In this document: positions 14,196-57,800 of the stretch, piece by piece
How positions within the stretch are numbered: the first letter of the stretch is position 1
How the letters are laid out: every line of letters starts with the position of its first letter
From: Lytechinus pictus
Taxonomy: Eukaryota
NCBI RefSeq assembly: GCF_037042905.1
Contig: NC_087263.1
Coordinates: 1,488,001-1,552,000, forward strand
Reading direction: 5' to 3'
DNA length: 64,000 nucleotides
The notes under the pieces: generated by a model
Told to the model about the DNA's origin: nothing
What the model saw: the letters and a program-made list of their open reading frames with translations, nothing else
Database searches by the model: none
Position numbers and translations under genes: made by a program

Positions 14196-15883
14196 TTGAA
14201 ACCAGTAGATGACTCCTTTAAATCAACTTCATTCATCCGCAGTACAGATGGTGATAACATGAAACACTATACAGTCAAGGATGATTCTTTATTCTTTTCA
14301 TTTATTCTATTCCATTTCAATGTAGATAGGTTCAGATATTGTATAAACAACATATTTTGATACAAAGGTAAAATAATGTAAGTTATGTTCTCAAATTATG
14401 TTGTAATAACAAACTAATTGTTAACTGTTCATTGTTAATATTAAAGTGAAGTCCTCGTTTTTCTATTTCTTCGCTTAACTTAATGGATTGTAGCACATGT
14501 CTATGGATGGCATTCAGAAAATATGAACACAATGAAGTTCAAACTGTCATTTATGTTGACGGCGTTTTCTTGGATTATTATTATTGAGTCGACAAGCTGA
14601 TGTTTGTGCCTTTAGTTGTAGACTCCATCTTCACCCTCCGTTTCTTCTCCACCATCGTCATCGTCACCTTGATACTGGAATAAACCATCGATTTGTGAAC
14701 CATGCCTGGCTAACACTCTCTGTACGACTTTCCGGAATTCCATGCCATTCTCTAATCTTTCCGTGAGATCGGACACGATTTCATGATTGATGTCAGCGTC
14801 TTCGAGGTAAACGTTCTGCTGCAAGAACTGAGAGTAAAGATCGAAAAAGATGCGTTTGACTGCCCACATTAGTTTCACGTGAGCCTTTGCTTTAGCGTCT
14901 TCTTCTTCCATTCCTTCTGAGATGTATTAGTGATATTTTTCGTCTCTCAAGTCCTTGGTGGCCGTCATGGCTTTCTCTAACCATCCTCGATAAGCGAGGT
15001 TGTCTTCAGTTTCTTCCATGTTTGCTATCATTGACCGTCGATTCGTGTCCATCGCTTTCTGATACACTCGTTTCGGAATCATCGTTGGATTCTTCAACTC
15101 TTTGCATTTGGGAGGGTGGGTCAGAGTCTTCATCTTCACTCGTTTCTTCTCCAGTATCATGCTCATTTTGTTCATGCCTCTGCGTATCATACTTCCTACT
15201 AAAAGTTTTATCGCATCGTGAACAAGCGTAACGGTTGGACATATCCAACGTATTCATGTCGACTCAATGATTATTTGTTGGGAAATAATGAAGAAAATTA
15301 ACGTTCAACCTTGTAATTATACGTAATCATGAAACGCACGCGAAGGTACTTTGATCCTTACGGATTCTTACAGACTTTTACGGATTCTTACGGATGTTTA
15401 CGGATTTTTACGGATTCTTACGGATGTTTACGGATTTTTACGGATTCTTACGGATGTTTATGGATTCTTACGGATTCTACGGATTAATCAATGCTTTCAT
15501 ATAATCTCAAGGAAAATATGTTCATCCACGTTGGAATGACCCATGCAGCATGGATCATTCCAACGTGGATCCGTAAGGATCCGTAAAAATCTGTAAGAAT
15601 CCATAAGAATCCGTAAAAATCCGTAATGATCCGTAAGAATCCGTAAGAATCCTTAAGGATCCGTAAAAATCCGTAAGGATCCGTAAGAATCCGTAAGAAT
15701 CCGTAAACATCCGTAAGAATCCGTAAACATCCGTAAGAATCCGTAAGGATCCGTAAGAATCCGTAAACATCCGTAAGAATCCGTAAGAATCCGTAAACAT
15801 CCGTAAGAATCCGTAAGAATCCGTAAGGATCTGTAAACATCCGTAAGAATCCGTAAAAATCCGTAAACATCCGTAAGAATCCG
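14196..15883 (-). mobile_element. Older truncated copy of the fold-back Maverick derivative (broken C2H2 ORF plus inverted satellites)
   Basis: Aligns to the arm at 50238-51400. The zinc-finger ORF is fragmented (15006..15257, 14927..15190, 14612..14911). Satellites at 15350-15482 and 15568-15883 are in opposite orientations. Confidence 0.92.
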
Positions 15884-15885
15884 TA

Positions 15886-31549: not shown

Positions 31550-33639
31550 GAAAGTGTACGTAAGTTGACCAGGAACCAAGCCGACACCAGCCCGATGGAG
31601 AAGAGCCACCTTCAGTACATTCACCTATCGACAGTTCGCCTGCGTTCAGCGTTCACCAATAAGTGTAGAATTCATCCAAATTTTGCCATCAAATGATGCT
31701 ATATGTTTCCTGGGGACATTTTACATCGATGAAATAACACTTCCGTTTACATATCTAATGAAGTCCGGCAAAAATACAATAAAAACTGCAGATTTTTAGC
31801 AAGAAAACCTGAGCATTTACAGACGTGACCTATTGCGTTGTCTTTTGACAAGATTGTGTGGTGATAGAAATGATGGATGATAAAAACAACAGCAATTAAA
31901 GTCACATTTGAAACCGAATTTGCCCCAAATATTCACCTTAGTATCCTTTAAAATGAGTCTGTGACATTTAAAATACCTATTTCCCCACTTTGATGCGTGC
32001 TCACTCATCCATGAATAAACAAATCGATTTCATTTTTGCACAGAATTCTGCCCATAGGTTAATGAACATTACCGCCAAATGACATTGCTAATGACAGCCT
32101 TGAAAAAAAATATTGAATAAGGGGTTACTTATTCTTAAACATATGCACCCATAATGTACACAAGTCTATGAGAGAGGAAGTCCAAATTTTAACAAATATG
32201 AAATAAGGGTTTGTTTCATGGACGGTTTTTGTTACTTCTGCCAACAATCATTTCATGAAACTTCGCACATGGCTTCAGAGTAACATTATCCAAAAGGCAC
32301 GCACACCAAAATAATACTTCGATACGGCACAGAGTGGGGCCAAGCCCTTGAACTTTCTTCTCATTTGCATAATTTTCGAATATTGTGCTCACTGATGCAT
32401 TACACATCGGGATTTTCATAAAAATCAAATCAAATGAACCATGCAACGAGGTTTGTGACAGATATTCATAGTTACAGATTGCATTTTTTCCAATAACGTA
32501 AAAAAGAGCTAATCATATTCCACATGTTAATTCAAGCGTGAATGTTTAATTAAACGCCTATGAATCATTGACGCATGTTAATTGGTCATGAACATAACGA
32601 AAAAGTTGATAAAAGATCAGTTTCAGTTACCAAAAAAAAAAACAATGGCCTATGATATTTGTTTTCAATAAATGTTCATTGAACCGTGAAACGATGAATA
32701 TTGTTGAAGATACTCTTCCCAAAAATAACTGTCATTATATTCTATAATTTTTACTGATAAAATGTGTAAAAAATCTAATTACAGCAAATTTTGACTTGTG
32801 TTTATTCAACCATGAAAGTTAACCAAAAAGTTGTATCGTCTTTTAGAAAGTACCTTTTACAAGCCTCCTGACTATTTTTCATGATGAGAATTTGGAATCA
32901 GTTCCAATAAAATGGAATCAAAGTCATGATATTTGTGACTATTGAAAAGTGACATTTTTGCCTTCTGACGGTGCTCACTGAAGCATGACGTAAAATACGT
33001 CCATAGCATTTACTCAGATGGTAGCTTATAAAATTACCTACACACTCATGTAAAAATATATCAAAAACTCGCGTTGGTTCGGAAATCATTTATGTTTGTT
33101 TGTTCAAGGGGGGACTTACTTTTTTTGTGTGTATAGAACAAGGTGTAAGACAAGGCTGCCCACTCTCTTACTGTTTTTATTATTAATAATAATAATAATA
33201 TAGGGTATTTATATCGCGCACATATCCACCTTGTTAGGTGCTCAAGGCGCTCCTAATTGCTGATGTTATGGCAAGTAAAATAAAACAAAACGATAATCCT
33301 GAAGGAATCATTATTCCAGGAGAAAATGGAACCCAGTGTTCATAAAAAGAAATCAAAATATCGCAGCCTGCCTATGATGCAGTAATTTTTGTGAGTTCTG
33401 TTAATTCTGGTAATATTGCGATAAAAGATATAAGGCAATTTGGAGAAATTGCAGGCCCTAAACTTAATTTAACAAAAACTCATGCAGTGTGAGATTATTA
33501 ATAGTTATAAAGATATACCCGGATTTCTGCAACATTACGTTCATGAAAACGAATGTTCCCTGTGCTGAAGCTGTGTGTGTGTGGACTTTCAGACACTCAA
33601 ATGCACGGGACTAACCAGTATGTCCCACAATAATTTGTA

Positions 33640-34560
33640 AATGCCGTTGTTCATGAGTCATCTATGTTCATCACAAACATGTCTCATTATCAAGAGCATT
33701 GGTAACCATGGTAACAGTGCGGAGAAAATCAATCAGAGCCGAAGAAGTTGCATGACCAGCACGGAACCCGTATTGATGTAGAGATAATATATTGCACTTG
33801 TTCATGAAATCCAATAATCTATTATGTATACACTTTTCTAAAATCTTTGAAAAAAATGGCAAGACTGATATGGGTTTGTAATTTCAAACATTTTCATTCG
33901 GAACATTTGTACTTACTGGAACAACACGAGCAATATTTAATTCATCAGTTAATTTACCAAGATCTAAACACTGATTGAATATTGCACAAAGGGGTTGACA
34001 TAAAATATGTATTGATTTCTTTATATTCTTTGTTACTTATATCATCATACCCAGGACTGCAATCACTTTTTATGTTTGACACAAATCCATGATCTCGGTA
34101 CAAGTGATTGGTTGGGAAAAAAAAAACAAGTCCTTGGATTTTTATCCAAATATCTACAAAAATTCAAATCTAAATTATTGTAATGATCAACAGGAAAAAT
34201 CATTTCAGTTACAATATTGACAAAATGTCAATTGAATACATTACAAATAGCAGAGGTATCATAGAATACCTGGTTATTACATTAAAAAAAATCAATACTT
34301 TTTATTTGCACGACCCATTGCACAATTGACTAATTTAACTAATATATTAAAAAGGTAGATGATTACCGATGTCAGTTATTAATATTCCCGATTCAACTTT
34401 GTCTACATGTATATCATTATATTATCAATTACAGAGATTGTGTCATCCGTGATTCTGGTAGGATGGTCAATCAATGGATACATATGATGTGATAACAATA
34501 AATTAAGGAAATTATCAACATATTGCACTTTACCCATATTTTTGCATTGAAAATTAATAT
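33640..34560 (-). mobile_element. Old CR1/L2 fragments (also at ~43340-44270 and in the tandem array)
   Basis: FSKILEKCIHNRLLDF..QYGFRAGHATSSALIDF; PTRITDDTISVIDNI. Confidence 0.8.
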
Positions 34561-34641
34561 GTAAAAGATATTGTCTATAGTGACGAAGAGTGATGTTGAG
34601 CCAAGTGCTGAAAGAATGTGTGAGGGCAGTTGTTATGCACA

Positions 34642-37600
34642 ACTGGTCGTTTTTATAGTATTTTTCCTATAGGCCTTCTGGTGTTGACTTGTTTTGAGGT
34701 TTTCCCAACCTGAGATACTTTTCAAAATCACAGAGTATACATTTGCAGCAATGATGGTAGTGGTCCCGTTGGACAAAGTACACGTAGGGTAAATTTCACT
34801 AAATATAAAATATAAATATTTTTTATTATACCAATGTTGCGTGAAATAGTTTTACATATGTTATCTATGTGAAATTTCCATGAGAGCTTATTATCGACTG
34901 TTATTCCAAGAAACTTAATATGGGATACATTTTCCAAGGGAGTTCCATCCAAAATAATATCAACAGGAAGTGTATTTATGGAGTTGCTAAACAATTATAT
35001 GTCAATGATATATCAAATACTTCGGCCTTATTATCGTTTATCCTCTTTGCAGATGATACTAATATTTTGTATGCTCACACAGAACTAGAAACTGTAATAT
35101 CTACTTTAAATGTTGAATTATGTAAAGTATCTACTTAGTTCAAATGCAACAAATTGTCATTAAATAAAAACAAAACACATTTTATGCACTTTAAGCATTA
35201 CAATACACATGCTGTTAACAATACAATAACGATAAATATTGATAACGTATCTCTACAGCAAAAACAACATTCAAAGTTTCTAGGGGTAACTATTGATGAA
35301 ACTTTATCCTGGAATAATCATTTAAGCCAAGTCACAACTTCCGTGTCCAAAGGTGTTGGAATAATTTCCAAATTAAAATACATATTACCTGAAAAAACTC
35401 TCTTTTTACTTTATAATGTTTTGGTGCTTCCTCACATATCATATTGTAATATAGTTTGGGGTAATTGTGGTAAAACGAAACTTAATCCGATTTTCTTATT
35501 ACAAAAAAGAGCAGTCCGTATTTGCACAGGATCACAATATCTTGCTAGATCTAATCCTTTATTTTTTAAATTAAAAACATTAAAAATTTGAGATATAAAT
35601 ACATTTCATGCTGCTATATTCATGTTCAAATACTAAGAGGGATTACTTTCCCCTTCCTTTCAAAATATGTCCACCCTGAACAACACCATCCATTCTTATC
35701 CAACACGAAACTCCACAAACTTTCATTTAACAAATCCAAAACTAATAATAACACACAAATCAATTAGACATTACGGTGCGGATTTGTGGAATGATTTATC
35801 ACATGACATTAAGCTATGCACATCACTTTATTCATTCAAAGCTGTTCTAAAAAATACGCTGTCAAGCTATAATTTCTAAAATCTTTCTGTGTACCCAAAC
35901 AACTGATAATCCCCCCCCCCCCTTGCACATGCACACTCGCACACCTGCACTTGCACTTTCACTTTTATCAACGTTATTGATCTTCTCTCAATCAAATTTC
36001 TCTTCTCTATCCACTTTTGATATATTCCTATTATTTTGTGCAATAAAAGATCTCTTTTATTGCACCATACAGTCTGGTTTTCTATCCCCTTTCCTTTCGA
36101 GGCCTCCATCACTTTCAAGCTCCAAGCTTAAGATGGAGGTCTCCCACATTTCTATATATATGTTCAGTAATTAAAGAAAATGTATATATAGATATAATTT
36201 CACAGTACAGTTGATATTTTATAATGATTAATGTGCATTATTCATTATGTTTAAAAAAATATTTGCCTAATATGTAATATTGAAAAAAAAAATTACACTT
36301 GTATATTCTTTGTTTTTGTTTTGAAATGTGGAAATAAAATAAATCAAATCAAATCAAACATGTATTTTGTTTTTTGAAGATTTAGTGACAATTTATTTGC
36401 TCTTATTCATTCGGTAACATTTTCTAGTTCAGAGTTGATTATATTAGCAAGGTGAAGAGGATTTTTATGTGAAAAAAATAAGTTAGAGTCGTCCGCAAAG
36501 AGAATGAAAGAAAGAACGTCTGATGATCTACAAAAATCAATAATATAAACTATAAACAAAATTCGGGCCTAAAAGACTACCCTGGGGAACTCCACAATTA
36601 TTTTTTTTCATTTGAGAATTGCAACCGTTTAAAAAGACATATTGCTTCCTATTCAAGAGGTAGCTCCTGAACCACTCCAAGGCCTTCCCACGCACTCCAT
36701 AATGATGTAATTTGTTAAGTAAAATATCATGATTAATGGTGTCGAAGGCCTTGGAGAAGTCCAGGAACAAACCAATTAAATGAGAAGATTTATCGATTGA
36801 ATGTGCCGCTTTTTCAATGAAACTCAATAAAGCATGTGTGGTGCTATGCTTTTCCCTAAATCCAAATTGGGAATTTTAAAGAATATTATTGGATTTGAAA
36901 AAAATTACAGTTCTTTTATAAATAATCTTTTCAAGTATTTTCGACAATGTAGATAACAAAGAAATAGGGCGGTAATTATTAACATCTAATTTATCACCCT
37001 TTTTAAACAGGGGAATGACTTTTGCAATTTTCATGCTCTCGGGGACAATGCCGTTAAGAAGTGACAGATTGAATATATGAGTTAGGGGATCCGCAATTGA
37101 CGATATTACCCCCTTAAGGAGAAAATTATTGATGTCATCATGTCCTGTACTTTTTTTAGAACTAAAATCAGAGACAATATTAATTATCTCCTGATTATAA
37201 GTTGGAGCGAGAAACATTGAACTAGAATTTGGTGGGCCTAAAAATTCAGAAAAGTGTTTTGTTGCGGGAGGAATATTACTTGCAAGATTTTCCCCAATTG
37301 AAGAAAAGTGATTATTCAGGATACTACAAATTGGGTGGGAATCTTCAAAAATAACATCGCCAGATCTAATTTTTGTAATATTAGATTTGATATATTCATT
37401 GCTTGTTTTAAAACTTTCCATGTATTTTGCATATCACGCTTGTAAAGTTGTAACTGATTAGTAAAATATCTTTTCTTTTCTAAACGTATAATTTTTGTCA
37501 ATGTATTTTTGTAAGAAGTATATTTAAGCTTGGATTGCTCAGAGCGTTTCATTTTATATTTATAATATATATTATTCTTCCTATTTATCAAACGCAAGAG

Positions 37601-40279: not shown

Positions 40280-43190
40280 ATAAATGCACCAACAGCATGA
40301 AATGTAGAAACTGTAAACAGACCGGCCACGTAAGCAACACTTGCACATCAAACGGAGACACAGCCACACCCAGCGAGTTACGTAACACCACAGCTGATCG
40401 TGAACCCCGTGAGAACGCCATGAAAGCCGGATCCACATCACGTGATCAAGCCGCGACAGCCAATGGGGCTCGCCCGAAGGAGAGAATGCATACGCCACAG
40501 AGGCGTACACAACAAGCTGACGCACCGTCACCTTCTCGCAAACAACGTCAACCACACATCACGGGCTTTCTTCGTACACACACATCGCCACAGTCTGATG
40601 AGCAATACAACACAACAGACGTAGCAAATGAATGCGATTTAGGAGACGAAACATCGAGCGAGGCAGACCAGTTTCAATCGCCTTTCTCACCTGAAACCCC
40701 GACACCGAAAAATCCAACAAAAAACCTCCGAAGCGGAAAAAAAAAGAAAGACCAAACACAGGAAGATAAATTGATGGAAACGAATGATGGAAACAAATGA
40801 AAGAACAACGGAAAACTCAACCCTACTAACATGGCTAATAACTCAGTCAATTTCGGTCAATGTGAGAGGAATACGAAATAAAAAGAAACGAGAAAAAATC
40901 TTCAAAGGGTTAGGTTTTCAAAAATACGATATCGTTTTGATGCAAAAAATATTATAACCATGGACCTTGGACCAATATTAAATATAGAAAGAAAATGTTC
41001 ATTATTTTTTTAACAACGGTACCGACCATTCAACGGGTGTTTTAATTGGAATAAAGATAGCCCGGTGGCCGTGTGATTGGTATTTGATTATCTTACAGCA
41101 ATAATTTTATTTTATTGTGAATATTTATGATCCAACAAAACCATCGGAAAAGTCGAATTTTTTAAGGTTTACTTTCATGACTGAAAGCACACGTACATAA
41201 AGATGATTTGCTATTATTGGGTGGAGACTGGAATTCAGTTCAAAGTTCATGTATGGACACCCAAGGAATAAGTTATGCATATAAACCTAATGACATGTTG
41301 CAAAATATATGTAAAAAGTTGAAGTAGACATCTGGAGAAAATGTCACCCTTCACTCAAACAATTTACTTGGCGGCAGTACTTACTTGGCTATTACTCCCG
41401 ATTAGACTATTGGTTGATACCATATAATTTATGTTCATTTGTACATTCCGGAGATATAAGACCCATTCTGAAATGTGATCACAACGCTGTGTCTCTAAAA
41501 CTTACAATTTCATCTTCAGGTAAGGGCAAAGGTATTTATTTATTATTTATTGGTATATATGCACATAAAAATTGACCAGCAGCACAAGCTGAAAGGGTCA
41601 ATTTACAAAAATTCACGAAGTAAAATATACATATATAACAAAGCAAATAAATAAAAATGTAATTACAGTATTCTGCGTCAAAACGTATCTCCAATTAAAA
41701 GATGTATCTCATAAATAGAAGTTTGATAAAGAGATAAATAAGCCAATGGGAAGAGGGAGAGAGAAGATGAAGAAGAGAGAGAGAGAAATGGAAGTAATGG
41801 AAAGAAAGAGAGGGAGAGAGGGGGTATGTCCTCCAAATAGAACGAGAAAATTGAGTGAGGTAGAGAGAAAAACAGAAAGTGGTGAAGAAGAGGAGGGTGA
41901 CATGGAAAACATAGAAGCAAATATATTGTCAATTATGATTGACATAAAGATATGAATATCCTACTATGTTACTAAGCAGATTGATAAATTAATTGAAGAT
42001 AAAAGTAAAGGTGCCTTTGTGAGATCCCGTGAAAAATGGATGGAAGAAAGCGAAAAATCATCAAAATATTTTCTCAACTTGGAAAAAAGGAACGGGATAA
42101 AGAAACATCTAGACTTTTTGAAACGGGATAAAGATGTCATTTTTGAGGAAGAAACTATTTTAAAAGAAAAATCTATGAATACTACCAAAATCTATGTTCA
42201 AATAAGAATAATGTTCTTGTAACAGAAATATATGATTATTTCAATGATGTTGAGTTTACTACCCTGTCAGAAGAAGAAGCTGACCTTTACGAAGGTTTAC
42301 TTACAGAATCCGAGTGTTACAAAGCATTGAAGTCAATGAAAGGTAACAAGACTCCAGGTAGCGATGGATTATCAGCAGAGTTTTTATCAATGTTTTTGGC
42401 AAGATATAAAATATATGGTTATCAATAGTTTGAATGAAGGTTACAGACAGAATAAGATGTCAGAATCTCAAAAGCAAGGTATTTTGAAATTGTAACATAA
42501 AAAACAGGTGACAGAGGTTTACTTGACAATTGGCGTCATATATCCCTCCTAAACATTGATTACAAAATTGCAGCCAAAGTCATTTTTTCACGTCTTCAAC
42601 GTGTTATCGATAAAATCATTTCTAAGGATCAAATTGGTTATCTAAAATTGCGTTCAGCTTCAGAAAATGTTCGTTTAGTTGAAGATGTAATTGATCTTTG
42701 TTCGCACCTAAATTCCAGGTTCCAGGCCATTTCATTTTTTTAGATAAAAAAAAAAGCTTTTGATAATGTTAACCATAATCTTTATTTCAGTTATTACATG
42801 AATTGAAATTCAAAGATTCTCTTATTAATTGAATTAAAGTTCTGTATAATGATGCTTCCGGATTAAGAGTGATTAATAACGGATGGATGTCACCAAATTT
42901 CAAAAAAGAACAAGGTGTAAGACAAGGCTGCCCACTCTCTTGCTGTTTTTATTCATTACTGATGTTATGGCAAGTAAAATAAAACGAAACGATAATATTG
43001 AAGGAATCATTATTCCAGGAGAAAATGGAACCCAGTGTTCAGAAAAGAAATCAAAATATCACAGCCTGCTGATGATGCAGTAATTTTTGTGAGTTCTGTT
43101 AATTCTGGTAATATTGCGATAAAAGATATAAGGCAATTTGGAGAAATTGCAGGCCCTAAACTTAATTTAACAAAAACTCATGCAGTGTGA
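40280..43190 (+). mobile_element. Degenerate Tx1/L1-clade LINE, copy B (segmental duplicate of copy A), with an unrelated insertion at ~41535-41965
   Basis: Collinear with 23505-25980 and 33136-33490, and lacks the Tc1-like and SINE-tail insertions. Confidence 0.9.
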
Positions 43191-45084
43191 GATTATTAAT
43201 AGTTATAAAGATATACCCGGATTTCTGCAATATTACGTTCATGAAAACGACTGTTCCCTGTGCTGAAGCTGTGTGTGTGGACTTTCAGACACTCAAGTGC
43301 ACGCGACTAACCATTATGTCCCACAATGATTTGTAAATGCCGTTGTTCATGAGCCATCTGTTAATCGCAAATGGGTCTCATTACCAAGGGCATTGGTAAC
43401 CATGGTAACAGTGCGGAGAAAATCAATCAGAGCCGAAGAAGTTGCATGACCAGCACGGAACCCGTATTGATGTAGAGATAATATATTGCACTTGTTCATG
43501 AAATCCAATAATCTATTATATATACACTTTTCTAAAATCTTTTAAAAAATTGGCAAGACTGATATGGGTCTGTAATTTCAAACTTTTTCATTCGGAACAT
43601 TTGTACTTACTGGAACAACACGAGCAATCTTTAATTCATCAGTTAATATACCGAGATCTAAACATTGATTGAATATTGCACAAAGGGGTTGACATAAAAT
43701 ATGTATTGATTTCTTTATATTCTTTGTTACTTATATCATCATACCCAGGATGCAATCACTTTTTATGTTTGACACAAATCCATGATCTCGGTACAAGTGA
43801 TTGGTTTGGAAAAAAAAAACATGTCCTTGGATTTTTATCCAAATATCTACAAAAATTCAAATCTAAATTATTGTAATGATCAACAGGAAAATTCATTTCA
43901 GTTACAATATTGACAAAATATCAATTGAATACATTACAAATAGCAGAGTTATCATAAAATACCTGGTTATTACATTTATAAAAATTAATATTGTACTTTT
44001 TATTTGCACGACCCATTGCACAATTGACTAATTTTAGCTAATATAGTAAAAAGGTAGATGATCACTGATGTCAGTTATTAATATTTCTGATTCATTTTTG
44101 TCTTCATGTATATCATTATATTATCAATTACAGAGATTGTGTCATCCGTGATTCTGGTAGGATGGTCAACCAATGGATACATATGATGTGGTAACAATAA
44201 ATTACGGAAATTATCAACATATTGCACTTTACCCACGTTTTTGTATTGAAAATTAATATGTAAAATATATTGTCTATAGTGACGAAGAGTGATGTTGAGC
44301 CAAGTGCTGAAAGAATGTGTGAGGGCAGTTGTTATGCACAATGAAATGAGCTGTTCGTTTTGCAACCATTTTAGAATCGATTTTCTGAAGCGATCTTCGA
44401 GGTAACCTGGAGTGCCGCTTCTCTTCAATCTTACCGTGTGTATCACAAAATCATTTTACACCCTGCATGGAATATGCATTAAAATTAGATATTTATGGTA
44501 TTTGTGGATGATAGTTGAAATATGCTAATTTTTCAGGTAATGGCAGATTTGGTGGATGTTCTTACTTAGGTCAAATGGTACTAAAAACCGTTAAAAAACC
44601 ATTTGTTGCAATTTGTTCGGGAAATAAAGGGTATTTTGGGCATATATTGACCCGTCTATTGGCAGGCATGTACAGGGGAAGAAATATTGTGCATCACAAA
44701 TGAGTATTATCATATGTTACACGTAAAAAGGTAAAACAATTAACTCCATCGTTATTTTAAATAGAAAAACATGACAGAAGAGTTGCATAGATATTAAATA
44801 TCTATCAATATATTATAATTAAGAAATACTCACATGTTTCTTGATTGCACGTCCTATTCACAATAGGTAGGCTGATACCACTCTATTTTGGATATCAGGA
44901 CTAAGACGCTACTTAAATGAATGAAATAAAAGAAGGAAATACTGTAGCGAACCCGCCCGCTTCGGTTTTGGTTATAACGCACTAAACGTATGGCGCTATA
45001 GCTTTTGGTGCGTTAGAACTTAATGGTCGACGGACGCAATGCAGCTCTCGGAGACTATAAATAGCAGAGTTTCGCAGTGTTCTC

Positions 45085-45264: not shown

Positions 45265-45965
45265 GTTCTCGTCACTTCGACGCTGGCTGAGGTCGGAGTC
45301 GGGCGACGAACTCCCTGCGCAGTTCCTCTACAACTAGGCTGAATCAAGAAAAGGTTTGGAAATGAACAACGTTCGCTTAATTTGTACTAGTAACGAATGC
45401 AAATACAATTATAGATAATTGGTGACGGTGTTAAATGTGATAACCTGTACAAATGCTGATCGACTGATGATGTATAATTAAATTATGACCGTTGTCATAT
45501 ACCAAATGTAATCATCGTCTCCTACCTGTGTGATCTATGGAATCCAATAGACTTCTACAGTATAAGCCTACCTATAGAGATTATACAGCTCCAATAGAAA
45601 TTCCCTGTTATTTTATATTCACCTGTTCACACTCCCTCTCAACAACTCCACCCCCATATATATTGGGAAAACGGAACACACCCGGGTCTCTACATAACGC
45701 CATATATACAGATATAAGGAAACCGCTCGCAGTAAGGATGGCTAGTACTCATCAACGGATGAAGGTGATAGAGGCAAGGGACAGGCCGGCCCCCCAGCAT
45801 CCAGGAGCGGTTCCAAGACAGTGGGCCGCCACACAAATTGTGTGAGAAGTGGGATGGAGAACGAGAGGACATCTGGAACAGATGGCAGCAATTCTTCAGG
45901 GGATGAATCAGTTTCTATACATTCCGGTATCAAGTTCTCTACCAGTGAGATGAAGCAGAAGAAAT

Positions 45966-47081
45966 ATGGAGATCGCACAGATGAGGAAAAATCAAGCCAA
46001 GTTAGCTCAGGACGAGATGATGAAACAGCAAGCCAATGCCCAGGTCATGATGATGCAACAGGTTCAAGCTATGCAATCACAGTTGGAGAAGCTGCTTTTG
46101 TCATTCTCTAATGAGCAAAGTAAGCCTACCAGACATGCCAGACGGAGACGAAGAAAACTGAGCGCTCGGGGAAGCACATATAGGTCTACACAAACAGCAT
46201 CATCAACCGAGGAGGAGGAAGTCCCATCCAATACTACTTTACGGAATAGTAGATGCAATCCTATTGATTCACCAGTACAAAATGCTGCCAGGGAAACGGC
46301 ATCAACAGCGGTGCAACCAACTGTTGTTAGGGGACCCTCCAATAATGACAGTAGGCTCCACGCCATAATCCATCAAGCATTTAAAGATACACTCCAACAT
46401 GGGCAGACGTCTAAACCAAGGTCATCACAGGACGCCCAACAGAAGCCTAGGGGTACCCACTTTTTCAAACCAGACAAATATGATGGATGTTCATCATGGA
46501 TTGATTACAGCAAACATTTCGACTCATGCCAAGCAGTGAAGGGTTGGGATAATAAAGAAGCGGGGAGGATCCTGCCATCATGCTTAAGAGGTCAGGCCCA
46601 AAGGCTGCTACGGGAACAAAGGCAGACAGTAGGCTTCAATGATCTGAAGAGAATGCTGGCCAACCGGTTCTCAGATAATAAACAGGCTGAGAATCATCTA
46701 CTAGAGCTGAAGCAAAGACAGAGACAGGAGGGCGAGACACTCAACATGCTCAAGGAGCTTGCGCAAAACATCAAGGAGCTCACCGCATTGGCCTATCCAG
46801 AGCTGGACTTTGATGTCCGTGACAGACTGGCGAAGGGTCACTTCATCGATGCCCTTGTGAAACCCAAGCTCAGAGAGGCAGTGTTCAACAACCAATGTAA
46901 GACATTGGATGATAATGTACATGCTGCAGTGGTAGCTGAAGTCTTCCATCATTCTGAGGATCAGAGAAGGAGCAGGAAACCTAAGTACAGCAGGGCAATG
47001 ACAAAGAAGAATGAGGAAGTTAAAGCAACTGAATCAATCTCCGAAGTAAAAGCCCTGATACCTGGGTTGGAAGAAAAATAA
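45966..47081 (+). CDS. gag: Gypsy Gag (degenerate; the zinc knuckle CYYCGKKGDMKRRC lies beyond the stop, at ~47186-47227)
   Basis: KPDKYDG..W..Y..HF..C...GW, CLRGQAQ, RQRQEGETL..LA..I..L...AYP, HFIDAL. Confidence 0.85.
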   Translation: MEIAQMRKNQAKLAQDEMMKQQANAQVMMMQQVQAMQSQLEKLLLSFSNEQSKPTRHARRRRRKLSARGSTYRSTQTASSTEEEEVPSNTTLRNSRCNPIDSPVQNAARETASTAVQPTVVRGPSNNDSRLHAIIHQAFKDTLQHGQTSKPRSSQDAQQKPRGTHFFKPDKYDGCSSWIDYSKHFDSCQAVKGWDNKEAGRILPSCLRGQAQRLLREQRQTVGFNDLKRMLANRFSDNKQAENHLLELKQRQRQEGETLNMLKELAQNIKELTALAYPELDFDVRDRLAKGHFIDALVKPKLREAVFNNQCKTLDDNVHAAVVAEVFHHSEDQRRSRKPKYSRAMTKKNEEVKATESISEVKALIPGLEEK

Positions 47082-47418
47082 GCAGAGGCAATCAGGACCG
47101 CACAACAGCCGCAACCTCAGACTGTGGTATCTAGTGACAAGCAACAGCAGCAGCAGGGGAATTCAAATAATAGTTCGATGGTAGCTGCTACTACTGTGGA
47201 AAGAAAGGCGACATGAAGAGGAGGTGCAAAAAGAGGAGGAGGGATGAGGTTCAGATTCACCAAGCCGCGCAGGGCTCAACAAACGAAGTAAGGTCGCCCC
47301 AGGGGGCGTGGCGCGGCCGAGGAACCTGGAAGCACCAGCCCCTCAACACCACATACTACACAGCCAATAGTTACAACTAGGTACAATGGAGAAGTCAACA
47401 AGGGGAATTTAGAAGGAC

Positions 47419-47994
47419 ATGTGTGTGCCAGTCACTATCGGTGGGACACAGCTAAGTTTTCTGGTAGACACAGGAGCAACGGATACATACATATCCAAGG
47501 AAGGCTATGGGAAACTACAAGAGAAGTCTACAATTCAAACTACTACAGAGAATGTTATGCTTGCCGACGGCTTACACCTAGAGGTGGATGGAAAGATCCA
47601 CACAGAAGTGATGATAGGCCAGGGGAAGGCAAGGATCACTCTGATCGTCGCTGATATCTGTAGCGATGGAGTCTTAGGCATGGATAATCTTCTGCTGTTA
47701 GGAGCAAGGCTTAACTTGGAGACTGCTACAATGGAAACCAAGTGGGGTTCAGTTCAGTGTCGCCATGAAGACAACACTAGAACTTGCTTCCGCATCATAG
47801 CTACTGAGATGTACACCATACCGGCAGGCCGAGAAGGCATCATTACAGGAAAACTACTGGACGGGGTTTCGAAACATCAAATGATAGACGTCAACTTACA
47901 CAGAAAGGCATCATCTTGGCCAGGACCCTCATCAGAACTGGTAATGGAGCAGTCCCAGTTAGAGTGTACAGCCCTAAAGCATCCCAACGTGTGA
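47419..47994 (+). pseudogene. pol: Gypsy aspartic protease (5' part of pol)
   Basis: FLVDTGATDTYI and VLGMDNL motifs, followed by frameshift and stops. Confidence 0.88.
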
Positions 47995-48231: not shown

Positions 48232-49216
48232 CAGTTTTAAATGAGATGGAGTAACAGCAAATAAAATCCCTATGAACAAGGCTAAAAACCGCCAGTATAA
48301 GGTATGTCAGGCATGCACTTTGCTCAACATCTCTTGCAATTGTGTAAACAAATGATTCCCGCAAGACTCCGCAACTACAGGTCTTTATAAAGGGAAATAT
48401 GCTAATGTGGTGATAATTACTTTTTCGCCGCATCTTGGTCTGGTTATATGTGTAGTACATAATTCGGAGGCATGCAAAATAAACTCTGCAATATGTCCTG
48501 AAATATTACTCAAAGTTACTCGACTGGGCATGTGCGGGCACTCATCTGGCAAATACAATAATGCATAACAATATTCCACCGACCACATTTGAAATTTTTA
48601 TTCGCCGCAAACGATCGGAAGTGTTAAAATCTGGTTGCAGTAAAGGTATAATTCTTACTTTTTACACTAATAAATGATTAATTGATATAATATGGGCATA
48701 TATCTTGTCATGCATTCAAATTTCAATTTGTTTATTAATATATTTGTTTATTATTTTCTTTTACCTTGTTATTTTTTAATAACTATATCGCCTTATATCT
48801 TATCTCCTTCTTCCATTGGGGCCTATAACTCACAAGCTATGCTTTCAACTTAGGCCTCTCCATTTTTCACTGATTTAAATTCTTATTGCGTATAATTTTT
48901 GTTTCAAGAACCATTTATTTCAACTCAAGATAATTATGTTATACTCATGTCAAGCATGTAAACGTCTATATATGAATTATGGAAATAAACTAAACAGAAA
49001 CCGAAACTGAAACTGAAACTAATATGAAAAATGGAAAATTTATACAAATGGATATTCGTAAAATTCAACTCCTCCGATTTCTTCGCCGAAACTGGCGGCT
49101 TCAAAGACGGACATCAGAAGGGTCCTTACTGCCGTTCTTTCTTTTGTGCTTCTTTAAAAATGAACAGCGGCTTGAATAAATTTGTTGCCTGTTGGAACTC
49201 CAGTCATAGAATCTTG
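48232..49216. mobile_element. Unclassified insertion in Gypsy pol, containing a CR1-type 3' tail (~48650-49020)
   Basis: Interrupts pol between DLGKTNLVK and IKQRPRKHP. The ends are weakly inverted (cagttttaaatgagatggagt / actccagtcatagaatcttg). Confidence 0.5.
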
Positions 49217-49288
49217 TTGATCAAACAGAGGCCACGGAAACATCCATTTGGACAGCGAGAAGTAGTTATAGGTGAGACCTCATCCTAT

Positions 49289-49522
49289 TTGACCTTTGAC
49301 CCGGTCATGACCTTTGACCCATGCCCTATGACCTTTGACCCATGCCCTTTTACCACATGACCTTTAACCTGGTCAGCCTTTGACCTTTGACCCGGTCAGC
49401 CATGACCTTTAGTCCGGTCAGCCTTTGACCTTTAGCCTGTCAGCCTTTGACCTTTAGCCCGGTCAGCTATGACCTTCGACCCGGTCAGCCATGACCTTAG
49501 ACCGGTCAGCCATGACCTTTAC
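49289..49522. repeat. Subterminal TGACCTT(TGACC) repeat array; mirror copy at 54512-54698
   Basis: More than 12 TGACCT hexamers, several arranged as TGACCTTTGACC. Confidence 0.9.
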
Positions 49523-50657
49523 CCCGTTCAGACCACACGACCCGATGGTTGACCCAGACTTCCGGCCAGCCATGAAATGGTATTACGACGCAGTTACGCA
49601 ACCACCGTGATGTCATAGAATTACCCTTATCGCACCATCGGTATTGCACCACCGTGGCGCAATCGTCAAGTATAGGATACGATGCACAAAAAGACATCTA
49701 TACAGTTTCTTATTCAAAAAGCGATTATTCTCCGCCTATATACCGGCGGATATGTCAACCGCCTCGCATGACTTCACCAGCTACGCAACCACCGTGATGT
49801 CATCCCGGGAATTACCCTTATCGCGCCATATCGGTATTGCACCACCGTGGCGCAATCGTCATCGCCACGTATAGGATACGATGCACAAAAAAGATATATG
49901 ATTTCTATACAGTTAAAAAGTGAAAAGTTATCTTTCTCTACCTACCAGCAGGTATGTCAAGTGCCTCGCTGTTCACGAATCGATCACCCCATGCATGGCC
50001 AACGCGCGTGATTGAACCTGGGATAGCTATTGGAAAGGTGAAACCCGACTCTCTCTGCCTCTTATTACAACAATGATTGGTAATCCAACATGTGATTATA
50101 ATCATGACATCTCAGGCTCTACTCATTCCATACATTTCCCCATCAAAACTCTCTGACTTTTTCATACTATTTTGTTAATACTTTTCATTTTAACTCACAT
50201 GACCTGCCCGGCTCTCTGACTCGCAAAAAGTATACTATATTGAAACCAGTAGATGACTCCTTAAAATCAACTTCATTCATCCGCAGTACAAATGGTGATA
50301 ACATGAAACACGATATAGTCAAGGATGATTCTTTATTCTTATCATTTATTCTATTCCATTTCAATGTAGATAGGTTCAGATAGTGTATAAACAGCAGATT
50401 TTGATACAAAGGTAAAATAATGTAAGTTATGTTCTCAAATTATGTTGTAATAACAAAATAATTGTTAACTGTTCATTGTTAATATTAAAGCGAAGTTCTC
50501 GTTTTTCTATTTCTTCGCTTAACTCAATGGATTGTAACACATGTCTATGGATGGCATTCAGAAAATATGAACACAATGAAGTTCAAACTGTCATTTATGT
50601 TGACGGCGTTTTCTTGGATTATTATTATTCGACAAGCTGATGTTTGTGCCTTTAGTT

Positions 50658-51299
50658 TTAAACTCCATCTTCACCCTCCGTTTCTTCTCCACCATCATCA
50701 TCGTCATCGTCACCTTGATACTGGAATAAACCATCGAATTGTGAACCATGCCTGGCTAACACTCTCTGTACGGCTTTCCGGAATGCCATGCCATTCTCTA
50801 ATCTTTCCGAGAGATCGGACACGATTTCACGATTGATGTCAGCGTCTTCGAGGTACACGTTCTGCTGCAAGAACTGAGAGTAAAGATCGAAAAAGATGCG
50901 TTTGACTGCCCAGAGTAGTTTCACGTGAGCCTTTGCTTTAGCGTCTTCTTCTTCCATTCCTTCTGAGATGTATTTCTGATATTTTTCGTTTCTCAAGTCC
51001 TCGGTGGTTGTCATGGCTTGCTCTAACCATCCTCGATAAGCGAGGTTGTCTTCAGTTTCTTCCATGTTTGCTGTCATTGACGATTCGTGTCCATCGCTTT
51101 CTGATACGCTCGTTTCGGAATCATCGTTGGATTCTTCAACTCTTTGCATTTGAGAGGGTGGGTCGGAGTCTTCATCTTCACTCGTTTCTTCTCCAGTATC
51201 ATGCTCATTTTGTTCATGCCTCTGCATATCAAACTTCCTACTAAAGGTTTTATCGCATCGTGAACAAGCGTAACGGTTGGACATATCCAACGTATTCAT
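50658..51299 (-). CDS. C2H2 zinc finger, acidic linker and helical domain protein (left arm, intact, ~213 aa from the first ATG)
   Basis: YACSRCDKTFSRKFDMQRHEQNEH. The frame is open to the stop at 50658. Confidence 0.75.
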   Translation of the reverse strand: MNTLDMSNRYACSRCDKTFSRKFDMQRHEQNEHDTGEETSEDEDSDPPSQMQRVEESNDDSETSVSESDGHESSMTANMEETEDNLAYRGWLEQAMTTTEDLRNEKYQKYISEGMEEEDAKAKAHVKLLWAVKRIFFDLYSQFLQQNVYLEDADINREIVSDLSERLENGMAFRKAVQRVLARHGSQFDGLFQYQGDDDDDDGGEETEGEDGV

Positions 51300-51390
51300 G
51301 CTGACTCGATGATTATTTGTTGGGAAATGAAGAAAATTAACGTTCAACCTTGTAATAATACGTAATCATGAAACGCACGCGAAGGTACTT

Positions 51391-52643
51391 TGATTCTTGC
51401 GGATTTTTACGGATTCTTACCGATTTTTACGGATTCTTACGGATTTTTACGGATTCTTACGGATTTTTACGGATTCTTACGGATTTTTACGGATTTTTAC
51501 GAATTTTTACGGATTCTTATCGATTCTTACAGATTTTTACGGATTCTTACGGATTTTTACGGATTCTTACGGATTCTTACGGATCCTTACGGATTCTTAC
51601 GGATTTTTACGGATTTTTACTGATTTTTTACGGATTTTTACGGATTCTTACGGATTCTTACGGATTCTTACGGATCCTACGGATTTTTACAGATTTTTAC
51701 AGATTTTTACAGATTTTTTACGGATTTTTACGGATTCTTACGGATTCTTACGGATCCTTACGGATTCTTACGGATTTTTACGGATCCTTATGGATTCTTA
51801 CGGATTTTTGCGGATTTTTACGGATCCTTACGGATTCTTACGGATTTTTACGGATCCTACTGCTTCTTACGGATTTTTACAGATTTTTACAGATTTTTAC
51901 GGATCCTTATGGATTCTTACGGATTCTTACGGATTTTTGCGGATCCTTACGGATTCTTACGGATTCTTATGGATTCTTACGGATTTTTATGGACTCGGGT
52001 CCCATATGCGGCATGGGTCATTCCAACGTGGATGAACATACATGTATTTTCCTTGAGAATATATGAAAGATTATATGAAAGCATCAATTAATCCGTAGAA
52101 TCCATAAAAATCCGTAAGAATCCGTAAAAATCCGTAAGAATCCGTAAGAATCCGCAAAAATCCGTAAGAATCCGTAAGAATCCATAAGGATCCGTAAAAA
52201 TCCGTAAGAATCCGTAAGGATCCATAAGGATCCGTAAAAATCCGTAAGAATCCGTAAGGATCCGTAAAAATCTGTAAAAAATCTGTAAAAATCTGTAAAA
52301 ATCCGTAAGAAGCCGTAGGATCCGTAAGAATCCGTAAGAATCCGTAAGAATCCGTAAAAATCCGTAAGAATCCGTAAAAATCCGTAAAAAATCTGTAAAA
52401 ATCTGTAAAAATCCGTAAGAATCCGTAGGATCCGTAAGAATCCGTAAGAATCCGTAAGAATCCGTAAGAATCCGTAAGAATCCGTAAGAATCCGTAAAAA
52501 TCCGTAAGAATCGATAAGAATCCGTAAAAATTCGTAAAAATCCGTAAAAATCGGTAAGAATCCGTAAAAATCCGTAAGAATCCGTAAAAATCCGTAAGAA
52601 TCCGTAAAAATCGGTAAGAATCCGTAAAAATCCGCAAGAATCA
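51391..52643. repeat. Inverted pair of 10-bp satellites, (GGATTCTTAC)n 51391-51992 and (GTAAGAATCC)n 52091-52643, around a ~100-bp spacer
   Basis: Directly visible; variants ggatttttac and ggatccttac. Confidence 0.97.
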
Positions 52644-52734
52644 AAGTACCTTCGCGTGCGTTTCATGATTACGTATTATTACAAGGTTGAAAGTTAATTT
52701 TCTTCATTTCCCAACAAATAATCATCGAGTCAGC

Positions 52735-53376
52735 ATGAATACGTTGGATATGTCCAACCGTTACGCTTGTTCACGATGCGATAAAACCTTTAGTAGGAAG
52801 TATGATATGCAGAGGCATGAACAAAATGAGCATGATACTGGAGAAGAAACGAGTGAAGATGAAGACTCCGACCCACCCTCTCAAATGCAAAGAGTTGAAG
52901 AATCCAACGATGATTCCGAAACGAGCGTATCAGAAAGCGATGGACACGAATCGTCAATGACAGCAAACATGGAAGAAACTGAAGACAACCTCGCTTATCG
53001 ATGATGGTTAGAGCAAGCCATGACAACCACCGAGGACTTGAGAGACGAAAAATATCAGAAATACATCTCAGAAGGAATGGAAGAAGAAGACGCTAAAGCA
53101 AAGGCTCACGTGAAACTACTCTGGGCAGTCAAACGCATCTTTTTCGATCTTTACTCTCAGTTCTTGCAGCAGAACGTGTACCTCGAAGACGCTGACATCA
53201 ATCGTGAAATCGTGTCCGATCTCTCGGAAAGATTAGAGAATGGCATGGCATTCCGGAAAGCCGTACAGAGAGTGTTAGCCAGGCATGGTTCACAATTCGA
53301 TGGTTTATTCCAGTATCAAGGTGACGATGACGATGATGATGGTGGAGAAGAAACGGAGGGTGAAGATGGAGTTTAA
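52735..53376 (+). pseudogene. Mirror copy of the C2H2 protein with one premature stop
   Basis: GGA>TGA at 53002-53004; otherwise near-identical to the left-arm copy. Confidence 0.8.
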
Positions 53377-54893
53377 AACTAAAGGCACAAACATCAGCTT
53401 GTCGAATAATAATAATCCAAGAAAACGCCGTCAACATAAATGACAGTTTGATCTTCATTGTGTTCATATTTTCTGAATGCCATCCATAGACATGTGTTAC
53501 AATCCATTGAGTTAAGCGAAGAAATAGAAAAACGAGAACTTCGCTTTAATATTAACAATGAACAGTTAACAATTATTTTGTTATTACAACATAATTTGAG
53601 AACATAACTTACATTATTTTACCTTTGTATCAAAATCTGCTGTTTATACACTATCTGAACCTATCTACATTGAAATGGAATAGAATAAATGATAAGAATA
53701 AAGAATCATCCTTGACTATATCGTGTTTCATGTTATCACCATTTGTACTGCGGATGAATGAAGTTGATTTTAAGGAGTCATCTACTGGTTTCAATATAGT
53801 ATACTTTTTGCGAGTCAGAGAGCCGGGCAGGTCATGTGAGTTAAAATGAAAAGTATTAACAAAATAGTATGAAAAAGTCAGAGAGTTTTGATGGGGAAAT
53901 GTCTGGAATGAGTAGAGCCTGAGATGTCATGATTATAATCACATGTTGGATTACCAATCATTGTTGTAATAAGAGGCAGAGAGAGTCGGGTTTCACCTTT
54001 CCAATAGCTATCCCAGGTTCAATCACGCGCGTTGGCCATGCATGGGGTGATCGATTCGTGAACAGCGAGGCACTTGACATACCTGCTGGTAGGTAGAGAA
54101 AGATAACTTTTCACTTTTTAACTGTATAGAAATCATATATCTTTTTTGTGCATCGTATCCTATACGTGGCGATGACGATTGCGCCACGGTGGTGCAATAC
54201 CGATATGGCGCGATAAGGGTAATTCCCGGGATGACATCACGGTGGTTGCGTAGCTGGTGACGTCATGCGAGGCGGTTGACATATCCGCCGGTATATAGGC
54301 GGAGAATAATCGCTTTTTAAATAAGAAACTGTATAGATGTCTTTTTGTGCATCGTATCCTATACTTGACGATTGCGCCACGGTGGTGCAATACCGATGGT
54401 GCGATAAGGGTAATTCTATGACATCACGGTGGTTGCGTAACTGCGTCGTAATACCATTTCATGGCTGGCCGGAAGTCTGGGTCAACCATCGGGTCGTGTG
54501 GTCTGAACGGGGTAAAGGTCATGGCTGACCGGACTAAAGGTCATGGCTGACCGGGTCGAAGGTCATAGCTGACCGGGCTAAAGGTCAAAGGCTGACAGGC
54601 TAAAGGTCAAAGGCTGACCGGACTAAAGGTCATGGCTGACCGGGTCAAAGGCTGACCAGGTTAAAGGTCATGTGGTAAAAGGGCATGGGTCAAAGGTGAA
54701 ATAGGATGAGGTCTCACCTATAACTACTGCGAGATGAAATTAGGAAGCATGTCAACAATCTTCTGGACAGGGAACTTATCGAGCCTTCAGACAGTCCGTG
54801 GGCAGCTAACATCGTCTTAGTCAGGAAGAAAGATGGTTCCCAACGCTTCTGTGTTGATTACAGGCAACTGAATAGTATTACCATGAAAGATGC

Positions 54894-57800
54894 ATCTCAT
54901 TTCAGTCTCCTTTCTTCACACAAACAAAAGCAAACAAAATTGTTTGTTATATTTGTAATCAATTTGTTTAATAATTGTTTTACTCTTGGGAGAGTGCGGT
55001 CACCGACACGTCAAACACAAATAACACATTCGTTCTCAAATTAACAACACCTTGAAAACATAATGCAACAATTGGCATCTAACTCAGCTTGCATGCTGAT
55101 TTGAATTACAAAGACTATACTAACATTGCTCTCGTATATAACATGTATAATGGTTGCATATTCATGGAACATCAATATTTGAAATCTTAGTGGTCGTATG
55201 TCAGTTACACTGAACTGAACGATGCCTTTCCGTAATAATTAGAATTATGAAACGATAATCAAAATATTGAATTATCGAATCTTAGAAATTGAGTTATCAT
55301 TCAACTTGATAACTGTAAGATTTTGCTTGCGTACTGCAAGCAAAACCATGGACCTTGAGATAAACCAAATAAGGAAAATTCTCTGAAATTCCTATCCGAC
55401 CCCATTAAGGCGATCGAGCAAACAAAGAAAATAGCTCCAAGGTCATCCTACATTTTTACTAACCTTTCTGATTTTTGTACAGAAATAAATTGTTTGACCC
55501 CCTAAAAATATGGTTTTATAAATCTTTGCGATAAAAGAATTCTTGGGGGGGGGGAAATATGCTACTGCCCTGTATGGTGTGATGACCGCGAATGAAAGCT
55601 AACCCCGAAATCTCCCTTCCACCTAACATAGCAACAATAGCATGTTGCGTAATCACATGCAATTCAACATTCCCCCTCAAATGAGATAACAATTCTCTTT
55701 CTATACAATGCTAAGAGAATTTTACAATCTCATTTCAGTCTCCTTTCTTCACACAAAAAAAGCAAACAAAATTGTTTCTTATATTTGTAATCAATTTGTT
55801 TACTTTTTACTCTTGGGAGAGTGCGGTCACCGACACCTCAAACACAAATAATGCGAGGTAAAAGATCGAATGGGATCAAAATGAGTAATTATACTAACTA
55901 GTATTAACTATAGTATTAACATATTTGTACGCCAATGTTGTACATTTGAACTTCCAAACTATAAAAAGTACAACCATAAAATTATTTACTATTTGTCTTT
56001 ACGCATGAAAAACCAGAGTAAGACAAATGTGACGAAAGATCTATTACCATTTTCAGCACAGTGAAAATTAAAACAAAATTATCCCATAAAAACAAAATCA
56101 GCACGAAAGAGCTGGACCTTTTGACATATGCTTAAAATGTTATAAATCAGAGATTCATTGCTCTTGCTGGAAATTGAATCTTTTCCGTATATGTCCTTTG
56201 CCGTGCAAAACATCTCTCATTAACGAAGCTTGAAGCGGCTTCCGATGCTCGACCAGCTCGTAAACTGTGCGTTCCGAGTGTGGAAGGATCCTGGCCCCCT
56301 TTATCTGCTACCAGCTGAGCTAAGTCTGAAGACGTTGCTGGTTCTTTTGGTGATTTTGATTTTGCTAAGCTTCAACGAGATTCATCAACGGCCGATTTGA
56401 TGATAGAGCTATCAGTAGGAGGTGGTGAGATATCTGCCAGAGTATGTGCCCATCGTATACTATGGCGGTGTCGATCGGAGAAATACTTGCTGCGGATTTC
56501 GCCAAGTGTTGAACGTATAAGACTAGATGTAATGGCCTCACGGGAAATGCCTGTAGATCGTGTTGGTTTGTGAATAACTTCTAACGCTTCCAGCCACCAA
56601 AGTACTTGCCCATAGTAGCAGGTGCCTTGGACTTCGAAACGGAATCTTGTGGAGAGGACGATAACTCAAGAAGATACATGTTGGTTGAAATCTTTGTGTG
56701 TGAATAACTGATTCGGCCCATGTTCCAGAGATAAGAACTTTATTCTGAAAAAGTAATGGCAGTAAATGAAGTTGCAAATTGGGACAATTTTCTGACGAGA
56801 CTAAATTGCGGACGTGTATAACGGCTATCATTGCTTTCTTTGATACCAAAAAACAAAGGATTACACAGCTTAAGATAATACTTCAGATTTGAAAATATTT
56901 GCAATATGTATTGCTGCCGATTTTTCGATCAAGATGTGAAGGACAATTGCTCGAACTATAAATGATATAGATTCGCCGATTTTGCTAAACCTGAAATTAT
57001 TATTGTTTTTAATTTATCAAAAACAAATTTCAAAGATAATTTCGTAGGTCATATAATAAAAGCACTGAATATCGACATCCAATCTTTGACTCTGAATATC
57101 AGCATATAATGTATCGCAATTGTAATCCAAATTATATAACTCAGTTCGTCAACAATACAACTACATAAGTATTCATGACGTCAATCTTTGTATAAGCATG
57201 TGCCGCTCATGGGCTAAAATCCAAAACTGTCTTTGTATAAGATCCATTATTATTTTGTATAATCATGTGCCGCTCATGGGCTAAAATCCATAACTGTCTT
57301 TGTATAAGATCTATTACTATTTTGCATAAGCATGTGCCGCTCATGGGCTAAAATCCATAACTGTTTTTGTATAAGACCCATTACTATTTTGTATAATCAT
57401 GTGCCGCTCATGGGCTAAAATCCATAACTGTCTTTGTTTAAGATCTATTACTATTTTGTATAATCATGTGCCGCTCATGGGCTAAAATCCATAACTGTCT
57501 TTGTATAAGATCCATTACTATTTTGTATAATCATGTGCCGCTCATGGGCTAAAATCCATAACTGTCTTTGTATAAGATCCATTACTATTTTGTATAATCA
57601 TGTGCCGCTCATGGGCTAAAATCCATAACTGTCTTTGTATAAGATCCATTACTATTTTGTATAATCATGTGCCGCTCATGGGCTAAAATCCATAACTGTC
57701 TTTGTATAAGATCCATTATTATTTTGTATAAGCATGTGCCTCTCATGGGCTAAGCATGTGCCACTCATGGGCTAATAATGTGCCGCTCATGGGCTAAGGT

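Follow-up and report, generated by a model that had tools for sequence, protein, structure and literature searches.

The sea urchin Lytechinus pictus carries, in a 64,000-nucleotide stretch of contig NC_087263.1 (positions 1,488,001 to 1,552,000; hereafter the window, numbered from its first letter), a 5.5-kb palindrome bounded by the termini of a Maverick/Polinton, and the locus raises the question of how an element that is almost entirely inverted repeat arose and is maintained. The original prediction was that one end of a Maverick had been copied back on itself during replication and had then been integrated by a helper. We lean, with modest confidence, towards a different answer, namely that the palindrome belongs to a multi-copy element with Maverick ends representing a long-standing satellite lineage of a helper Maverick.

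The two arms, of ~2.7 kb each, make up 98% of the element and surround a 96-bp centre devoid of self-complementarity. Going inward from its end, each arm has first a 7/22-bp minisatellite, next non-coding sequence containing a duplication of ~190 bp, then an outward-pointing gene and finally a 10-bp satellite. The inversion stops at a 6-bp target-site duplication (TSD) and the flanks lie outside the palindrome; the chance level for such a match between two random 6-mers of the window is P ~5e-4. This confirmed the predicted layout of a single inverted repeat with AGTAGT/ACTACT ends, a 6-bp TSD and a centre of about 100 bp, with the qualification that the arms are not perfectly identical. Their unique part differs by 8 substitutions and no gaps across 1832 bp (0.44% left versus right), the terminal minisatellites measure 299 and 254 bp, and the 10-bp satellite arrays, of 602 and 553 bp, are separated by 28 substitutions and 9 gap runs; satellite units 1 to 12 of the two arms mirror each other almost one for one, rare variants included. 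Maverick ends carry the motif (AGT)2//(ACT)2 or (AG)3//(CT)3 together with a 6-bp TSD (PMC8097293), and the proposed Maverick/Polinton origin was upheld by the end motif, the TSD and the Maverick-type, ATPase-derived gene described below.

Translated apart, both flanks proved to be consecutive pieces of the start of a Ty3/Gypsy reverse transcriptase (RT) that join at the duplicated hexamer, as had been claimed from the observation that deleting the element plus one TSD restores the Gypsy frame. The right piece matched Ty3 RT at E 3e-11, and the left piece we assign to the RT start by a motif. Insertion as one unit and the need for a helper, both part of the original prediction, were supported. 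Palindromes are a known artefact of long-read sequencing and amplification, and the element might be a fold-back read or a collapsed full-length element of the assembly; this we regard as extremely improbable, since the flanks, which bear a TSD, are collinear rather than inverted, the arms have substitutions of their own and arrays of unequal length, and a second copy has the same inverted centre. Collinear flanks, differing arms, the decayed second copy and a public contig with another flank indicated that the palindrome is a genuine insertion. At four listed sites of arm difference the other copies match the right arm, and these are therefore private changes acquired after insertion; of 5 sites, the second copy matches the left arm at 3. 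A high-copy, transcribed ~200-bp repeat at 49020-49219, close by the insertion on its left side, is far deeper than the element in all four public runs compared below. At 45954-47991 (+), an aspartic protease (Pfam E 4e-11) and what is likely a gag-like frame of Gypsy type probably derive from the decayed retroelement that also left the RT scrap hosting the palindrome.

The palindrome is not the only copy. Copy 2, at 14194-15885, is cut by a 1471-bp tandem repeat and lacks ends; its inner arm is 3.6% diverged from the palindrome, and its inverted arrays flank the same loop. The recurrence of this fold point, inverted arrays around the 96-bp loop, in a copy so diverged told against a one-off fold. 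Reads of four public runs, compared with the left arm as far as the edge of the satellite, covered it in 26-30 of 30 bins. In one contig of run X3 the element begins at precisely 49261 behind an 89-bp flank of other sequence; this is the single further insertion (n = 1) sharing the exact terminus, next to the decayed copy 2 without ends; the distance of the palindrome to the X3 contigs is mostly 1-5%. The nearest named proteins are from Lytechinus pictus itself (87-97% over part of their length), and the 5 members of a sister family at 70% identity are spread over at least 4 chromosome-sized records, with consecutive locus tags for two of them. The 1471-bp unit that truncates copy 2 is present in ~3.5 tandem copies at 97-98% identity (15885-21174), with further copies at 32467-34642 and 42955-44341. 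In four sea urchin gene models (P0014, P0018, P0175 and P0002) the first 65-90 codons of the element's gene are found either joined to a sialyltransferase or a kinase, or in duplicate, which suggests exon capture or mis-annotation at insertions. Two ideas about the loop were discarded: the opposite loop orientation in copy 2 reflects element orientation only and not a flip-flop, and a head-to-head junction of ends was ruled out, there being no end motif in the loop.

Arm-to-arm divergence is 0.44%, versus 3.6% to copy 2 and mostly 1-5% to the X3 contigs. Copy 2 also has, in each of its two arrays, a satellite variant (9 of 43 units in all) that is absent from the 109 units of the palindrome (P 6e-6). 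Since the arms are closer to each other than the copies are, and satellite variants are shared within a copy, the palindrome would be a maintained trait of the family rather than the product of a one-off snap-back. Within each lineage, therefore, one arm appears to be overwritten by its partner, either during replication or through conversion afterwards.

Frames of at least 100 amino acids are confined to the zinc-finger gene of each arm, its antisense or shifted frames and satellite frames, and the longest ATG frame of the outer non-coding arm has 63 amino acids. Searching with nine ATPase and ATPase-integrase proteins by tblastn returned the zinc-finger gene as sole match, with no ATPase motor and no integrase; polymerase, protease and capsid were judged absent from missing open reading frames (ORFs) and lack of room, with no direct search. 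The predicted lack of an ATPase and other core genes accordingly stood for the motor and the integrase (tblastn) and, by missing ORFs, for the rest, but the gene itself is ATPase-derived. The gene is present in both arms, open on the left, with an in-frame stop on the right. Its product, P0001, consists of a C2H2 finger (residues 10-33), an acidic linker, a helical domain (83-194) and an acidic tail. Pfam recognises a weak C2H2 finger only and has no model for the helical domain, and in a structure model both finger and helical domain are confident (mean predicted local distance difference test score 81). Foldseek with this model gave no match at E 0.001 in BFVD or PDB, VIA-align found generic helices (best Z 6.7), the Atlas fold search gave no usable match, and a search for longer forms (query A5) retrieved zinc-finger proteins and one chimeric gene model only.

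A profile search of 1.84 billion representatives returned 276 proteins at E 1e-10 or better, generic zinc-finger proteins included, among which three (P0106, P0144 and P0137) have the P0001 helical domain at the end of an A32/IVa2-like ATPase, and two more begin in the last stretch of the ATPase. A profile of the helical domain only, built from 14 close relatives, scored these at 73 (P0106), 57 (P0144) and 50 bits (P0137), the best score among 1,005 shuffled or reversed controls, 751 of which returned one, being 7.2 bits. Pfam Pox_A32 is matched by P0144, above cut-off, and by P0137; P0106 has no Pfam ATPase match and was called an ATPase by motif and alignment. Searching with the ATPase fusions gave 1,952 matches, and among the best 120, a set enriched because the query contained the tail, the helical domain reached at least 30 bits in 116 with a 41-sequence profile and in 91 with the 14-sequence profile (reversed control maximum 8.1). 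The named proteins among these 120 are almost all from molluscs. The ATPase is joined to an rve integrase in two gene models and to a chromodomain in two; this fits Mavericks, which have both ATPase and integrase among their core genes (PMC8502044, PMC6431247). Maverick-type ATPases (P0248, P0262) and one stand-alone gene (locus L004) are found in records labelled bacterial or symbiont, probably host DNA carried over.

An H-x4-H finger is shared by 24 of 27 stand-alone proteins and 44 of 46 N-terminal ATPase fingers, the inner ATPase fingers ending in Cys in 110 of 111 cases, and a profile of the stand-alone finger favours the N-terminal finger in 32 of the 39 ATPases having both. P0001 is a C2H2 finger plus the helical tail of a Maverick-type A32 packaging ATPase, without its motor, and the simplest reading of its origin, as far as sequence goes, is an ATPase gene from which the motor was deleted. 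The gene is, on this homology, new evidence for a Maverick origin of the element.

The stand-alone, motor-less proteins appear to form an old, deep lineage and not a fresh scrap. In a tree of 54 rows, for which one row had been relabelled and five short ones set aside following a first tree of 99 rows, the 27 grouped stand-alone proteins and 2 ATPase-bearing rows make one branch with support 99/99, and the first ATPase-bearing match ranks ~84 of 150 in the unrestricted profile search. The gene is also under purifying selection in the one distant pair that could be tested, L001 versus L002 (ratio of non-synonymous to synonymous change, dN/dS, 0.099/0.342 = 0.29 over 157 codons; Fisher P 3e-5). 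These belong to four readable loci, three from 227 candidate metagenome stretches (L001-L003) and one from 79 genome stretches (L004), each 1.5-2.4 kb long with 0.1-1.1 kb upstream of the gene. By tblastn no ATPase motor or integrase was matched beside the gene in the window or in L001-L003, and none was evident in L004 on inspection by eye. Directly upstream of the gene lies an unrelated ~10-bp satellite in L001 and in L002, and a 21-bp repeat in L003. On its metagenome contig, L001 (506-2229) has degraded inverted arms with 52-bp and 10-bp repeats, a TATA-like end and an 870-bp loop that holds a single copy of the gene, a foldback-like arrangement in another lineage.

How do other origins fare? 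The arms could be the long, gene-bearing terminal inverted repeats (TIRs) of an autonomous Maverick that lost its interior, kept alike by panhandle repair, with the gene as a passenger accessory. An internal deletion accounts for the ends, the TSD, the arm likeness and an old selected gene without any new function, and butterfly polintons do have ~2-kb TIRs holding hexon and adenain twice, those lacking polB being mobile (bioRxiv 10.1101/2025.02.07.637071). We still find it fairly unlikely, because TIRs of vertebrate Mavericks span 46-1,447 bp (PMC8097293), the L001 gene sits in the loop and not in the arms, the loop is kept across copies 3.6% apart, and viral-contig scans revealed no helper. 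A recent snap-back of one local Maverick end (TIR plus adjacent gene), integrated in trans as a defective-interfering particle, would readily produce near-identical arms and the first 12 mirrored satellite units, and adenovirus vectors undergo replication-induced rearrangement on account of internal inverted repeats (PMC2518115). It may be the route by which the family first arose, but for the present element it is unlikely: a diverged copy has this loop and the inverted arrays as well, no self-complementary hairpin forms the tip, and the gene is outward and ATPase-derived, whereas the vertebrate ppolb-atp-pm-pz modules run toward the centre (PMC8097293). A fresh copy-back of the "TIR plus first gene" is hard to reconcile with a gene that points outward, comes from the core ATPase gene and belongs to an old stand-alone lineage.

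The remaining candidate, a classical foldback transposon of the FB/TU/Tetris type, moved by a cut-and-paste transposase and carrying a captured Maverick gene, draws on the long modular arms with tandem repeats and the short non-coding middle, a layout known in a sea urchin (PMC4079207). Tetris TSDs, however, are 8-10 bp and most foldbacks are Mutator-like (PMC4079207), while the present element has a 6-bp TSD, (AGT)2/(ACT)2 ends and a Maverick-type gene, and this origin is very unlikely.

Several observations weigh against a long-standing satellite lineage with a functional gene. No autonomous element with the same TIR was found in viral contigs by protein scans with P0001, A2, P0144, A4, A5 and A6, and the terminal 30-mer had 0 matches there. 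Gene conversion after insertion could also homogenise the arms, and the reciprocal satellite variant (10 of 109 versus 0 of 43 units) is not significant (P 0.06). The right-arm gene and that of copy 2 are both broken, the L001 gene is frameshifted, and selection within the family is weak (palindrome versus copy 2, dN/dS 0.029/0.065 = 0.45, P 0.05). RNA reads (run X23; 312 reads from 6% of the run) are few, at low depth on both strands and mostly less than 95% alike, with 4 reads at 99% or better. Strict monophyly of the stand-alone group, which was gathered with P0001-based profiles, appeared in only 14% of bootstrap trees, and P0153, one of the rows set aside, has an H-type finger and falls outside the branch. 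The finger assignment is based on 24 residues, and tblastn gives in addition a collinear alignment of the gene to the inner finger and tail (P0199 residues 321-500), so that a plain C-terminal split of the ATPase is possible. Loci L001-L004 are short, so that an autonomous Maverick lineage could carry the gene as an accessory, and three contigs of 10.6-16.7 kb contain relatives. Apart from these points, the X23 reads (6% of the run) gave no transcript start or end sites, no RNA holder of the element is on record among the listed runs, and the phage collection gave no match.

For a satellite lineage dependent on a helper Maverick, a cycle can be proposed from the way Mavericks are thought to replicate, adenovirus-like and protein-primed from repeated end motifs (PMC8097293). 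The helper polymerase would copy the element by protein-primed strand displacement, and the strand thus displaced would form a hairpin of 2.7 kb, restoring a duplex origin. Repair or template switching inside this hairpin would keep the arms alike, and the helper integrase would insert the duplex with a 6-bp duplication. An ancestor's end may first have been duplicated by way of homology between the inverted satellite arrays; inverted repeats drive rearrangement of adenovirus vectors, and the fold-back idea may thus describe the birth of the family. In the most speculative step, P0001 would be an adaptor or decoy by which the packaging machinery of the helper is steered or dampened, possibly through the 10-bp arrays, a role proposed because P0001 keeps an N-terminal-type DNA-binding finger and the C-terminal tail and has no motor.

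With Mavericks/Polintons (adintoviruses) the element shares (AGT)2//(ACT)2 ends, a 6-bp TSD, TIRs and homology to part of the A32/FtsK-type packaging ATPase, but it is 5.5 kb long and Mavericks are 12.7-24.6 kb (PMC8097293, PMC8502044, PMC6431247). In contrast to an autonomous Maverick it lacks polymerase, integrase, motor, protease and capsid and thus falls outside that class by core genes and size; its single gene is doubled and outward, and its arms of ~2.7 kb exceed the 46-1,447 bp of vertebrate TIRs (PMC8097293). It has instead what is expected of a non-autonomous Maverick derivative, the ends and TSD without core genes, Maverick-derived internal sequence and, counting the X3 contig, more than one insertion sharing its terminus. 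Butterfly polintons resemble it in having genes duplicated in long TIRs and in being mobile without a full gene set, and differ in keeping core structural genes and a large unique middle (bioRxiv 10.1101/2025.02.07.637071). Adenovirus mini-genomes arising from internal inverted repeats are likewise protein-primed and linear, with a duplicated end, a small centre and dependence on a helper, yet they are laboratory products without TSD integration and without a heritable family having its own conserved gene (PMC2518115). The foldbacks FB, TU (sea urchin), Galileo and Tetris are similar in being non-autonomous and in having a short middle between long inverted arms of modular build that contain tandem repeats, but their 8-10-bp TSDs, Mutator-like or other cut-and-paste transposases and lack of Maverick ends or genes set them apart (PMC4079207). 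The phage satellites P4 and PICIs (phage-inducible chromosomal islands), small parasites that hijack packaging with a partial packaging protein, are bacterial and offer a functional analogy only. Ad12 SYREC is a symmetric adenovirus recombinant, and the adenovirus product of Steinwaerder 1999 reportedly has a duplicated end. Non-autonomous Polinton families are listed in Repbase, and a palindromic form may be on record there. We found no account of palindromic Polintons or of the P0001 gene in the literature searched, Kapitonov and Jurka 2006, Repbase and preprint supplements lying outside that search.

The window contains other features. An AID/APOBEC-like deaminase frame at 6717-7958 (-) (Pfam XOO_2897-deam E 2e-7, APOBEC_N, SNAD4) has a tail of ~16 21-bp repeats of EEDEYDG type and lies ~550 bp from the scrap of the element's sub-terminal arm. 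Decayed non-LTR (long terminal repeat) retrotransposons occupy 27163-31400 (-), 9934-12720 (+) and 1768-3984 (-), with endonuclease and RT, RT and RNase H, and further LINE (long interspersed nuclear element)-like frames among them, and a 67-bp tandem array of 8.5 copies at 96% lies at 57187-57798.

Table 1. Coordinates of the palindromic element, its parts and its relatives in the window.
Feature	Position	Strand	Remarks
Palindromic element	49261-54728		5,468 bp; one inverted repeat around a non-palindromic centre
Left target-site duplication	49255-49260	+	GCGAGA
Right target-site duplication	54729-54734	+	GCGAGA
Left terminus	49261-49290	+	(AGT)2 end motif; 30-bp perfect terminal inverted repeat
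Right terminus	54699-54728	-	Ends in (ACT)2
Sub-terminal minisatellite, left arm	49308-49531		7/22-bp
Sub-terminal minisatellite, right arm	54503-54667		Shorter than left
Two diverged ~190-bp direct copies	49591-49767 and 49778-49969		Non-coding left arm; mirrored in right arm
Gene of P0001	50658-51299	-	Open, 213 amino acids; points outward from centre
Left 10-bp satellite	51392-51993		A/T-tract, ~60 units; begins 93 bp upstream of left gene's ATG
Loop	51994-52089		96 bp, non-palindromic; same in second copy
Right 10-bp satellite	52090-52642		Inverted, ~55 units
Mirror gene copy	52735-53376	+	In-frame stop at codon 90 (53002-53004)
Host-site flank	54729-54894	+	Ty3/Gypsy RT N-terminal scrap; short upstream piece ~49220-49260
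Second copy	14194-15885		Truncated and decayed; inner arm with broken gene, satellite, same loop, inverted satellite
Scrap of sub-terminal arm sequence	8505-8816	+	78-88% identity

Gene content has been the main argument on whether animal Mavericks form virions and on how they replicate. A young, nearly all-cis element of 5.5 kb would define a helper's needs for copying and integration, and the likeness of the arms within a copy is what the proposed adenovirus-like cycle of strand displacement and panhandle formation predicts. A wider proposal, that old and widespread palindromic satellites of animal Mavericks use a motor-less hijacking protein which binds phased 10-bp arrays and redirects or throttles the helper's motor, we hold to be doubtful at present. 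Should P0001 have no role in packaging, it would still represent an ATPase-derived family whose main domain has no Pfam model, and a marker for such elements in marine invertebrates. If a motor-less derivative does act on packaging, Mavericks would have true gene-bearing satellites, and if it does so by hijacking, these would be a eukaryotic counterpart of P4 and PICIs and would count as indirect evidence for DNA packaging by animal Mavericks.

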